A program made the position numbers and the translations under genes. From NCBI GenBank assembly GCA_963693055.1, contig OY843751.1, positions 4,992,001-5,056,000 of the forward strand: a DNA stretch of 64,000 nucleotides, in the 5' to 3' direction. The stretch comes from a bacterium (lineage in GTDB: Bacteria > Zhuqueibacterota > Zhuqueibacteria > Residuimicrobiales > Krinioviventaceae). Shown here piece after piece: positions 14,591-17,879 of this stretch. Every line of letters starts with the position of its first letter. The first letter of the stretch is position 1. The notes under the pieces are model-generated. The model did not search any database, had not been told where the DNA came from, and saw only the letters and a program-made list of their open reading frames with translations.

Positions 14591-14788
14591 ATGGATAAAT
14601 TTAAATTAGACAAATCCTCATTTTCAATTGCTTCCATTCATGATCAGGGCAAAGATAAAGCGTATTGGCAATCGAAAACGCCCCTGGAAAGACTGGAAGC
14701 CCTGGAATTGATGAGACAGGTGCTTTATGGCTACGATCCGACTACCCTCAGACTCGAAAGAGTTCTTGAGATTGTTGAACGAAAATAA
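14591..14788 (+). CDS. Small antitoxin-like protein of the type usually upstream of a nucleotidyltransferase
   Basis: 65 aa; YWQSKTPLERLEALELMRQ..YGYDP..RLERVLEI pattern recognised from memory of this family. Confidence 0.6.
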   Translation: MDKFKLDKSSFSIASIHDQGKDKAYWQSKTPLERLEALELMRQVLYGYDPTTLRLERVLEIVERK

Positions 14789-14890: not shown

Positions 14891-15130
14891 TCAGTGATTC
14901 AATTTTTGTCTTGACACATATTCATCCAATAGGTTTCGTATCATCTTTTGATATTGCGTACTGTGTTTTTGTGCTATTTCTTTGAAAAAATCGACACTAC
15001 TTTTACTCAAAGATATTGTAATTTTTATAGTTTCTTCTTTAAAAGCCAGTTCTTCCGTTGACGGAAGGAAATCTGTCACAACCTGCACATTATCTATTGG
15101 CTCATCAGTATATTTTATTTTCTTTTTCAT
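14891..15130 (-). CDS. CopG/BrnA-type RHH antitoxin
   Basis: KITISLSKSSVDFFK..A.K....YQKMIRNLLDEY C-terminal RHH. Confidence 0.8.
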   Translation of the reverse strand: MKKKIKYTDEPIDNVQVVTDFLPSTEELAFKEETIKITISLSKSSVDFFKEIAQKHSTQYQKMIRNLLDEYVSRQKLNH

Positions 15131-15287
15131 ATATCTTTTATACTATTTTATTAATTACCGGGTTCAAATGCGCATGATGGGACAACATACCAAAACATTT
15201 GTACTGAATTTTATTAGAATTGATTTTGAAACAAAATCATACAACGACAAACAAAATTATGCAATAATACTTAACCTTTTTTTATCT

Positions 15288-16190
15288 TTATTTAACTAGT
15301 ATTTCTTTAAATAAATGAATTATTAATTGTTCTAACATAACTTCATATTTTTCAATTTCATTTATATCTGTAATTCCCCTCGGGATGAATCCACTGTGCA
15401 TCAATTTATTTCTCTTTGTATTTATTTTTTTTATTTCTTCTTTTGAAGTTTCTAATTTTAATTGATTCTTATCAACAAACCAATCCCATTTATATAAAAA
15501 TGGATAACGATTTAATTCGTCTATTTTTGAATAAACAACTTTCCTATCTCTATCATCATAAAAAACTTTTATTTTTTCATTATTCTTCATAAAGGCCCTG
15601 ATATCCTTTTGAAATTCTTTTTTCACTTTTGTTCTAAATTTTTCAACATCAATAATAAAATCACCATATTCATGATTCCTCGAAAATTGATAATTAATTA
15701 AAGACTCTAACACAATCCATTGTCGTATAAGCTTACGGCCTATGAAAGTATTAATATTTTCTTCAAATGTTAAAGACAATTCAAAAAGTAGGGATTTAAT
15801 AACTCTAAAAAAATCATCCTCAATTTGCTTATTGTTTAAAGCGACTTTTATAAAACTAATAATTTCATCATGTTTATCATTAACCATCGCTGGCTTCGTT
15901 ATTTGCCCAGAATATGTATTAACTGCTCTTTTTAAAATAATATCCCCATCATTGTTAACTTGATAGGTGCCAAACCAAAAAATATATTTTCGTAGACTTA
16001 TTGATAAAAGCAAGCATAAAAAGTCTATAATTTCAGACATATCATTCTCAATCTCACTAATGCTAGTAAAATTAGCAAAATAATAATCTTCATTGTTTTT
16101 TTGTATTCGAACAAGTTTGATATTGTCGAAAGTAATTTCATCAAAAAAGATTATATTAAACAATCTAAAAAATTCTTTACCATTAATCAT
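15288..16190 (-). CDS. HEPN-domain protein (ApeA-like)
   Basis: WIVLESL helix and C-terminal RNKLMH (RxxxxH) motif; AT-rich. Confidence 0.65.
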   Translation of the reverse strand: MINGKEFFRLFNIIFFDEITFDNIKLVRIQKNNEDYYFANFTSISEIENDMSEIIDFLCLLLSISLRKYIFWFGTYQVNNDGDIILKRAVNTYSGQITKPAMVNDKHDEIISFIKVALNNKQIEDDFFRVIKSLLFELSLTFEENINTFIGRKLIRQWIVLESLINYQFSRNHEYGDFIIDVEKFRTKVKKEFQKDIRAFMKNNEKIKVFYDDRDRKVVYSKIDELNRYPFLYKWDWFVDKNQLKLETSKEEIKKINTKRNKLMHSGFIPRGITDINEIEKYEVMLEQLIIHLFKEILVK

Positions 16191-16287
16191 TGCATCACCA
16201 TATATGTTTATTAACTGATTGTTTTTTAAATTTTAATCCTTCAAAGGGTATTGTAAAGAATCAATAACCTTTGACATAATCTACGAA

Positions 16288-17319
16288 TTATTCTTCCTCG
16301 ATAGATTGCACAACTCCTTCCAAATAACATACCCAGAGCCAATGTTGAAGATGAGTTATTTTTGAATGGCTGGTTACACCAAAAAAGTCCTTTAAGGCTA
16401 ATTTCACTTTTTGACTACCAAGCTCAAGTCCAAGATGAGATAATAGTTCTCTTTCTTTCCTGTATAAATGTGGACGAGTATGCCGGTAATCAATTCGAGC
16501 TGAAGCATGTTCAATTCTCCCATCCATTGTCTTTTTGTATTTTGTTTGTAAATAATCTAATATTGCAGGTGCACATTCATTTGGCCAGTCCCAAATAATA
16601 GTCCATTTATTATTCTTGATTCCAAAATCTTTTTTGAAGTTATTATACATAACCGTATAAGATTTTTTGCCAAATCTTTTTTCCCGAGATTCTCCAATTT
16701 TGTTAAACAGTTCAATAATCCTTGATTTTAGCAACGTATCTGCCCCAATGCTAGATGGAGAAGGTAAAATTTTTATTTCAGGAGGTTTATTATTTACAAT
16801 AAAATTTCCACCAACTTGTATGTTATTATTTCCTAAAATCTTTTGATTTATCATCTCGTTTTCAGCTTCTTTTTGTTTACGCTCTTGTGACACTTGGGGG
16901 GATATGTCATGCTTATGACCAGTGACAATACGTTTGATTGATTTTAAAAAAATTTCTCGTCGTGTTTCAGCATCCAAGCCAACTAAATCAATATAAACTA
17001 TAGCTGACAACAAACCTTCTGGTTGACATTCTCTTATTCTAACAGGAATGAGGACTTGCTTACTCCCAATAGGATCTTTTAAAAAAGCTGCTGCCCATTC
17101 TGACTGAGCAAACTTTGAATTAAAATAAGACGGTGAAAAAAGTGCAATAGTTCTTTCACAATTTTTAGTAGCATTCTGCATTTCTAAAATAAAATTAGAG
17201 CCAGCAATAAAATCCATTTTTTGCATAACACAAGTATACTTTTCATCGACAAGCCAATTATAGATTATATTTGCATCAAACTCGTCATCACGGTTGTAAC
17301 TAATAAAAAAATCTACCAT
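16288..17319 (-). CDS. TIR-domain protein with helical ORF6C-like C-terminus
   Basis: DFFISYNRDD...DFIAGSNFILEMQNA...LFSPSYFNSKFAQSEWAAA (catalytic Glu position)...LIPVRI...YIDLVG. Confidence 0.88.
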   Translation of the reverse strand: MVDFFISYNRDDEFDANIIYNWLVDEKYTCVMQKMDFIAGSNFILEMQNATKNCERTIALFSPSYFNSKFAQSEWAAAFLKDPIGSKQVLIPVRIRECQPEGLLSAIVYIDLVGLDAETRREIFLKSIKRIVTGHKHDISPQVSQERKQKEAENEMINQKILGNNNIQVGGNFIVNNKPPEIKILPSPSSIGADTLLKSRIIELFNKIGESREKRFGKKSYTVMYNNFKKDFGIKNNKWTIIWDWPNECAPAILDYLQTKYKKTMDGRIEHASARIDYRHTRPHLYRKERELLSHLGLELGSQKVKLALKDFFGVTSHSKITHLQHWLWVCYLEGVVQSIEEE

Positions 17320-17440
17320 AATGCATTACTCCAATTTTAATCACTTATTACTTTGTTAAAATACTTTAGATAAAGTATTATGCAATTGAAGCTAGGAATT
17401 ATTAAGAATTAAATGTTTTTAAGGTAAAGTACACTAACTA

Positions 17441-17635
17441 TTATCCACCAATATAATGGCTTGGAACAGACTCCCAAGTGCTACATTTGCGACGGATAGC
17501 ACGAATAAATGTATGAAACAATTCATATTCATCCACAGTGACATTACCAATTACTTCGTTAACAGTTTCCTTTAATGCCCCCCTAATCTCGCAGTCCAAA
17601 TATCCAACAATCTCTTCAATCTCTATTTGTGCCAT
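17441..17635 (-). CDS. Small hypothetical protein (64 aa)
   Basis: RBS AGAGG before MAQIEIEEIV; same strand and directly upstream of the TIR gene. Confidence 0.6.
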   Translation of the reverse strand: MAQIEIEEIVGYLDCEIRGALKETVNEVIGNVTVDEYELFHTFIRAIRRKCSTWESVPSHYIGG

Positions 17636-17879
17636 ATTGCATCCTCTTAAATGATATAAAACCATACGTAGAATTTACCATTTCACTATCAATTCCTGAT
17701 ATTGAAATATATGAGACGCTAAAACGCCAATACACTCCTACAATAAACTACCTTAATAAAGCGAGTTTCAATATAAAAATAAAAAAATTCAGAAAAACCG
17801 TCTGCCCCTGAACTCCCCATATCGTATTCATTGCTATAATTAAATAACAATATTCTCACCCATAAATGCAAGAAAATTA

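Follow-up and report, generated by a model that had tools for sequence, protein, structure and literature searches.

A TIR fusion protein from a Zhuqueibacterota bacterium as a member of an apparently undescribed effector family that shares a module with prophages

The window analysed here, a stretch of 64,000 nucleotides from a bacterium of the phylum Zhuqueibacterota (assembly GCA_963693055.1, contig OY843751.1, positions 4,992,001 to 5,056,000), contains three co-oriented genes, which encode a small protein (P0003), a TIR-domain fusion (P0002) and a HEPN protein (P0001; Table 1). A reading of the sequence alone, hereafter the original prediction, had proposed the three genes as a candidate anti-phage system. 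We find that P0002 belongs to an apparently undescribed family in which effectors are fused to a helical C-terminal module that is also a gene of its own in prophages. Because the module occurs alone in prophages and is elsewhere fused to several toxic enzymes, P0002 is probably an anti-phage protein encoded by one gene, and the module would be its sensor. More specifically, we assign a probability of roughly 0.5 to the reading that P0002 is a one-gene sensor-effector, the module of which engages intermediates of phage replication or recombination and clusters the TIR domain.

A homologue search with P0002 yielded 83 matches among 1,384 candidates, and many of these homologues share only residues 155–343 with it. 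Pooling of 41 proteins with 53 proteins from fetched loci resulted in 68 groups at 90% identity, of which 20 are stand-alone module proteins and 43 are fusions to enzymes, namely SEFIR (n = 13), Mrr-like (n = 11), TIR of two clades, TIR-A (n = 9) and TIR-B (n = 5), and HNH (n = 5); the remaining groups are helix-turn-helix (HTH) fusions (n = 2) and partial sequences (n = 3). P0002 is a member of TIR-A. The fusion labels rely on motifs; four of them were changed manually, three sequences were treated as partial, and Pfam confirms examples. Catalytic-type motifs are retained throughout: EW in 9/9 TIR-A groups, WE in 13/13 SEFIR groups, the HNH pattern in 5/5, and G[IV]D..QCK in 10 of the 11 Mrr-like fusions, the remaining one being cut at its start. 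In two cases (P0041 and L057 532–1785), a prophage repressor and the module are fused in one protein. The module was not detected in 50,697 phage records, and literature searches on ORF6C, GemA/Mu-like proteins, TIR, SEFIR/Mrr/HNH fusions and NinB brought up no paper describing it, although subscription papers and the supplements to large surveys of defence systems may well include proteins of this kind.

The genomic neighbourhoods of stand-alone and fused copies differ markedly. We fetched 53 module-encoding loci (19 from genomes, 2 viral and 32 from metagenomes), to which one further locus was added, and scanned the neighbours at 39 of the 53, leaving out near-duplicates, L033, L041, L048 and the L075-like short extras L076 and L077. 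Twelve of the scanned loci carry stand-alone and 25 enzyme-fused copies; one HTH fusion and one partial copy were not counted. Directly upstream of the module, 11 of the 12 stand-alone loci have a repressor-type HTH gene, whereas none of the 25 enzyme-fused ones does. Nine of these repressors were recognized by Pfam and two by a hidden Markov model (HMM) built from those nine; at L030, an open reading frame (ORF) of 56 codons intervenes. Furthermore, a Mu-type transposase is encoded nearby at 7/12 stand-alone loci, the other five comprising one with a primase, one viral contig and three contigs shorter than 2.6 kb. The same repressor-then-module arrangement is found on plasmid pCAR1, where a divergent small DNA-binding gene, an HTH gene and a stand-alone module homologue (L088 4933–6471) form what is left of a prophage-like regulatory region on this catabolic plasmid. 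By contrast, restriction-modification genes are found within three ORFs of 10/25 fused copies versus 0/12 stand-alone copies (Fisher p 0.015, overstated by kinship). At all four TIR-A loci with context (L025, L028, L049 and L051), a type IIG (Eco57I-like) restriction-modification gene immediately precedes the fusion, and it is possible that TIR-A fusions guard the type IIG enzyme. SEFIR fusions repeatedly have an upstream DUF4238 neighbour or, on the downstream side, a DUF6035/DUF7830 gene (L032, L033, L061, L065; L035, L071) and may represent small multi-gene systems.

A quick, unrooted tree of the module (65 rows, the three partial groups being left out; 13 of 62 branches starred) requires 17 changes of label, compared to a minimum of 6 and a mean of 39.7 for shuffled labels. 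A TIR-B copy and an HNH copy are sisters (Shimodaira–Hasegawa-like approximate likelihood ratio test, 99), one HNH copy is nested inside a clade of TIR-B copies (100), and six stand-alone copies form a group with two TIR-A ones (94). The module of P0002 is 62–63% identical to the stand-alone proteins P0014 and P0016, which makes it as close to these as to most TIR-fused copies, and the TIR domain of P0002 is 57–59% identical to those of paralogues whose C-terminus is far more distant; hence, both halves of the protein appear to have been shuffled. The tree, unrooted and weakly resolved as it is, makes repeated swapping of effectors on the module likely and gives no direction to it.

The structure predicted for the module from 41 sequences (predicted local distance difference test score, pLDDT, 85; predicted template modelling score 0.57) consists of two helical lobes. 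In a search of this model against 48,161 chains, lobe 2 matched the C-terminal domain (CTD) of lambda Red-beta (6m9k_D, Z 8.5, root-mean-square deviation 2.1, 61 of 67 residues aligned; 8tfu_A, Z 8.2), and lobe 1 matched lambda Orf/NinB (1pc6_B, Z 6.1, root-mean-square deviation 3.5, 75 residues aligned); the next unrelated row had a Z of 5.7. Sequence searches of the PDB yielded nothing useful. The Red-beta CTD and Orf are reported to be structural homologues that engage SSB or exonuclease, and the former binds lambda exonuclease and is needed for SSB binding (PMC6393309). Because both lobes independently pick one small family, we take the fold match seriously. The predicted three-helix bundles superpose on their lambda counterparts with Z values that a common arrangement of helices could by itself produce; unlike the latter, however, the module has two lobes in one chain, shares 7–12% identity with these proteins, and is fused to toxic enzymes or placed behind a repressor rather than within a recombination operon. 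The C-terminal region of P0002 had been described as helical, basic and possibly duplicated. Its helical nature is borne out by the model and its basic charge resides in lobe 1, lobe 2 being neutral; duplication fared worse, since comparison of the profiles of lobes 1 and 2 gave a probability of 0.4%. A recent internal duplication is accordingly not supported, and an ancient one is possible.

The same region had also been likened to ORF6C, a domain of phage regulators. A direct match did not materialize, as neither P0002 nor its module matches ORF6C (PF10552) in Pfam and neither the ORF6C nor the GemA cut-off is reached. Remote kinship to ORF6C is nevertheless suggested by several lines of evidence: two paralogous TIR fusions (P0043 and P0048) score above the Pfam cut-off for ORF6C, alignment of the module with the ORF6C-positive paralogues by hhalign has a probability of 68% over 116 columns, the top viral structure match of the module in Foldseek is an ORF6C protein (at a weak E of 0.04), and an Atlas lead of 0.85 points the same way. 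GemA (PF06252) is weakly matched by 3 of 41 module members (best E 0.034). ORF6C was found in 0 of 167 genomes of the host phylum. P0043 and P0045–P0049 form a sister TIR-fusion family with a more distant, ORF6C-positive C-terminus (PHROG 17822, E 2.5e-16); one of its members is named from Gracilimonas.

How would such a protein act? The module would bind something produced while phage DNA is replicated or recombined, such as DNA with SSB, phage exonuclease or annealase, and several copies would gather on this trigger; the TIR domains would then assemble and deplete NAD+, the loss of which would kill or stall the infected cell. SSB-linked triggers have been described for other defence systems (10.64898/2026.02.22.705581). 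The components of this scheme differ in firmness: the TIR fusion is probably a defence effector, and the link of the trigger to phage replication or recombination is tentative. Still more specific, and doubtful, is the idea that a lysogeny-region protein of Mu-like prophages, comprising two Red-beta-CTD/Orf-like bundles, was repeatedly captured as an integrated decoy that binds SSB-coated phage DNA or recombination exonuclease and fires the attached TIR, SEFIR, Mrr-like or HNH domain. If this were true, the fusions would represent an undescribed sensor family, the prophage ancestors of which still exist beside the captured forms. For most defence proteins, the recognition of infection and the origin of the sensor domain are described as largely open (10.64898/2026.01.26.701840, 10.64898/2026.02.22.705581). 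The 158-residue module is encountered both as an ordinary prophage gene and, at 50–70% identity, as the portion common to effector fusions of four kinds, so that a small panel of proteins would suffice to examine whether an immune sensor arose from a phage protein; it is also a first handle on ORF6C/GemA-like domains, and the fold match names candidate triggers. Separately, we note that the host genome carries four SSB-family genes above the Pfam cut-off (L084–L087).

A number of observations weigh against the sensor-effector reading. Z values of 8.5 and 6.1 at 7–12% identity can be reached by small helical bundles through arrangement alone, Foldseek found no PDB match at E 0.001 and did not recover the Red-beta/Orf matches, and the net charge of lobe 2 is near zero. 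The Red-beta CTD in isolation is reported to show no binding of the SSB tail peptide, and the pocket of Orf to be partly plugged (PMC6393309). The restriction-modification adjacency was compared with prophage copies only, on contigs that are often short and among non-independent kin; a restriction-modification neighbour is absent from 15 of the 25 fused loci and from the window. None of the models in PADLOC, NCBIfam or PHROG extends over the module, and the quick, poorly resolved tree gives no prophage-to-host direction. Against independence of the three genes, unrelated HEPN or HEPN-like genes are found near the module at six loci (L025, L036, L049, L056, L072 and L073).

The last observation bears on a signalling pair of TIR and HEPN proteins, which the original prediction had offered alongside two stand-alone defence genes stacked in a hotspot, and the evidence here is linkage. 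A tblastn search of the 53 module loci revealed no relative of P0001 or P0003, and family HMMs run on all 54 loci detected no gene of either family (best E 0.06 and 0.53, respectively). Likewise, 0 of 18 module-bearing genomes matched the P0001 or P0003 family (mostly metagenome-assembled genomes, with no positive control), and no module was present within the ~1.5 kb fetched around three other loci of the HEPN family and two of the 64-residue family. Among the 167 phylum genomes, the module is found in one (that of the window), the HEPN family in four and the 64-residue family in two, the three co-occurring only in the window's genome. Thus, the co-occurrence of the TIR fusion with the HEPN gene that had been proposed for measurement is not seen as linkage, relatives of each gene are found without the others, and the lack of recurrent family linkage in module loci and module-bearing genomes leads us to reject both the three-gene system and the TIR–HEPN pair. 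The three genes are very probably independent, as the stacking alternative has it. One could still imagine that a nucleotide signal produced by the TIR domain switches on the HEPN RNase encoded next to it and that the HEPN partner is exchanged between families: the two genes are adjacent, co-oriented and 97 bp apart, ApeA proteins are reported to be activated by small nucleotides (10.64898/2026.01.26.701840), and there are the six loci mentioned above. This is very unlikely, however, given that a HEPN-like gene is directly adjacent in just one of four TIR-A loci (L049) and is unrelated to P0001, that the RNx3-4H motif used for the HEPN-like calls is present in 14 of 231 ORFs of the module loci, that the same module is fused to nucleases needing no partner, and that P0001-family genes occur without a TIR fusion.

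Two other explanations concern the module itself. The fusion could be a defence protein in which the module is a decoy of the lysis-lysogeny switch, binding the repressor, antirepressor or operator of incoming temperate phages and not their replication machinery. The position of the stand-alone gene behind a repressor at 11/12 loci, the fusions to a repressor in two groups and the basic, ORF6C-like lobe 1 would all fit; however, the best structural matches are recombination proteins rather than regulators, and a gene transcribed together with the repressor of a transposable phage can serve exclusion rather than regulation (PMC9936078). We consider this explanation rather unlikely. Alternatively, the module could be a mere DNA tether or autoregulator, or the fusions toxin-like or neutral mobile cargo without an anti-phage role. 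Consistent with this, the slot occupied in the window lies among toxin-antitoxin genes, fused copies at L031, L036, L037, L043 and L055 have toxin-antitoxin pairs next to them, lie within conjugative elements or are flanked by housekeeping genes, and defence was seen for just 12 of the 32 E. coli TIR candidates put to the test (PMC11350192). On the other hand, four unrelated kinds of effectors retain catalytic-type motifs with the same module, no antitoxin-like partner recurs, and all TIR-A loci with context directly follow type IIG restriction-modification genes. We regard tether or cargo as an unlikely account compared with the sensor-effector that we favour.

The TIR domain of P0002 matches Pfam TIR_2 with 86.5 bits against a gathering cut-off of 28. 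Its AQSEW motif occupies residues 71–75, with E74 in the EW motif conserved in TIR-A; the position of E74 presumably corresponds to the catalytic glutamate of TIR NADases, and the intact glutamate noted at the outset thus stands. So does the linker of the NQxIxGNNNIQVGG type (NQKILGNNNIQVGG in P0002), which accompanies the C-terminal module whether the latter is fused or stands alone. GNNNIQ-type linkers recur in small ORFs adjoining stand-alone module genes (L030 6717–6887 and 7510–7989; L052 7573–7968), and a Gp5_C repeat is weakly matched by 2 of 41 module members. Relatives of P0002 were not found in viral contigs by single-sequence patterns, nor was there a DNA-level match in 5,426 E. coli genomes (DNA comparison only).

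TIR enzymes are reported to be NADases switched on by assembly, and single-protein TIR systems (TIR-II, V, VI and IX) protect E. coli in a manner requiring the TIR active site (PMC11350192). P0002 resembles these in being one TIR protein the non-TIR part of which has no assigned role, and differs in that the extra domains named in the accessible part of that report are TM, AAA, TPR and DUF4238 rather than the P0002 module. With Thoeris it shares a TIR domain with a conserved glutamate, and the TIR-B fusion P0020 matches the ThsB model over its TIR part; in contrast to Thoeris, no ThsA-type effector is encoded by the neighbours scanned. Indeed, PADLOC and NCBIfam revealed no Thoeris or cyclase partner among the four neighbouring ORFs, as had been predicted, and the score of P0002 against ThcB4 is 18.1 bits versus a cut-off of 220. 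A single SEFIR protein has been reported to protect B. subtilis (10.1101/2022.05.11.491447). The SEFIR partner of the module matches PADLOC bSEFIR (E 6e-46) and the TIR-B partner matches ThsB (E 1e-58), in the effector part only: the SEFIR fusion P0044 covers positions 40–189 of the 412 in the bSEFIR model, whereas the rest of the model is unmatched and the C-terminal part of SEFIR fusions is a P0002-type module. Moreover, P0002 itself carries TIR_2, not SEFIR.

For P0001, the RxxxxH motif (RNKLMH) recognized in the original prediction is well supported, with R260, N261, L263 and H265 invariant in 8/8 aligned family members. The predicted model (pLDDT 69) comprises an alpha/beta region of ~120 residues followed by a helical domain, and the best structural matches of the latter are mostly HEPN proteins, including AbiA (Z 8.9) and the HEPN toxins 7ae2 (8.5), 5yep (7.5), 8xdj (7.4) and 4nqf (8.1), with further matches to Csm6 and the HEPN domain of sacsin, which supports the HEPN fold. 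No close relatives were present among 1,573 candidates, and a profile search returned the family's own members only; a full HMMER scan retrieved four distant relatives (25–29% identity), and three more came from related genomes. Atlas neighbours of P0001 carry ApeA families (0.92–0.93, with low shares of 18–34%). P0001 itself has no Pfam match to HEPN_Apea or ApeA_NTD1 and no PADLOC match to ApeA, and its family matches Pfam weakly (HEPN_Apea in 2/8 members, E 0.054 or worse; HEPN_RiboL-PSP in 3/8). The 583-residue Ec2ApeA is described as consisting of N-terminal (1–198), Mid (199–309) and HEPN (335–583) domains, and small nucleotides activate ApeA proteins through a pocket, some responding to unknown ligands (10.64898/2026.01.26.701840). 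Similar to these, P0001 is a single-gene HEPN protein with an alpha/beta region preceding a HEPN domain that carries insertions; in contrast to them, it has 300 residues, about half of Ec2ApeA, and lacks the full three-domain architecture of ~580 residues. It is also without the extra N-terminal region of its relatives of 415–486 residues, and since its relative P0086 (329 residues) shares this short form, comparison of the sequences suggests that P0001 is probably not a truncation. By analogy, P0001 likely represents a short ApeA-like form acting as an independent RNase effector, and we do not file it as ApeA. At L081 (1117–3735), a relative of P0001 with 458 residues abuts a gene matching the PADLOC candidate PDC-S26 (E 6e-146).

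The start of P0003 was placed by the ORF caller at 17665, giving 74 residues. The alternative ATG at 17635, which gives 64 residues, is preceded by a ribosome-binding-like AAGAGG and agrees with the starts of two homologues. These are encoded in two other genomes in unrelated contexts, namely between what we take to be a HicB-like gene and a GIY-YIG-like nuclease gene (L094 270–2449) and behind an esterase-like gene (L079 1064–2054). The homologues share a CxxWExV motif. No relatives were found in viral contigs (single-sequence patterns) or plasmids, and no library match assigns a function to the protein, in line with its initial description as unknown. P0003 is likely a passenger.

Table 1 Coordinates, in the window, of the three genes, their parts and the surrounding slot
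Feature	Position	Strand	Basis or remark
P0003, 64-aa protein	17441..17635	minus	
P0002, 343-aa TIR fusion	16288..17319	minus	
TIR domain, aa 4–118	16966..17310	minus	Pfam TIR_2
Linker NQxIxGNNNIQVGG, aa 158–171	16807..16848	minus	low confidence in model
Two-lobed helical module, aa 186–343 (158 aa)	16291..16764	minus	homologue searches
Lobe 1, aa 193–264	16528..16743	minus	basic (net charge +4.7 on average in the family); predicted to fold like lambda Orf/NinB
Lobe 2, aa 281–342	16294..16479	minus	near-neutral three-helix bundle; predicted fold like Red-beta CTD
P0001, 300-aa HEPN protein	15288..16190	minus	
HEPN motif R260-N-K-L-M-H265	15396..15413	minus	R, N, L, H invariant 8/8
Variable slot, 2.66 kb	15140..17803	no strand	comparison with same-genus genome G001
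brnA-like antitoxin gene, slot edge	14891..15130	minus	Pfam E 7e-4, below cut-off
65-aa ORF after typA terminator	14591–14788		conserved in G001

The locus was reproduced as three AT-rich, co-oriented ORFs, P0003 and P0002 being separated by 121 bp and P0002 and P0001 by 97 bp. The GC content of 15288–17635 is 29.3%, compared to a genome mean of 39.4 ± 3.6%, with 23 of 2783 equal tiles as low, and is unequal among the three genes (25, 33 and 39%). A promoter scan was at chance level (26 versus 20.4 ± 4.1). A single contig covers 14400–18400 without any difference in each of three runs from one sample, from which the window may itself derive. PADLOC, run as had been suggested, as well as NCBIfam and PHROGs gave no name for any of the three proteins beyond weak TIR matches. 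The location after the typA terminator is correct, with the refinement that the genes point towards typA and are separated from it by the 65-residue ORF and the brnA-like gene. The accessory hotspot that had been surmised is evident from the same-genus genome G001, in which the flanks are 93–94% identical and the slot has a different filling of 1.4 kb, composed of a brnT toxin gene (Pfam E 2e-21) and an ORF of 312 residues. The slot holds a stack of accessory genes that are very probably independent, and the three-gene locus as such is ordinary. Identity with G001 stops at the brnA start (window 14891–15139 versus L015 5354–5644). The brnA-like antitoxin gene has lost its brnT toxin gene in the window's genome, where no brnT partner was found, the partner being intact at the same site of G001. 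The 65-residue ORF has no match in four profile libraries. A stretch of 58 bp from its end (window 14727–14784) has a second copy, 95% identical, in the slot of G001 (L015 5733–5790).

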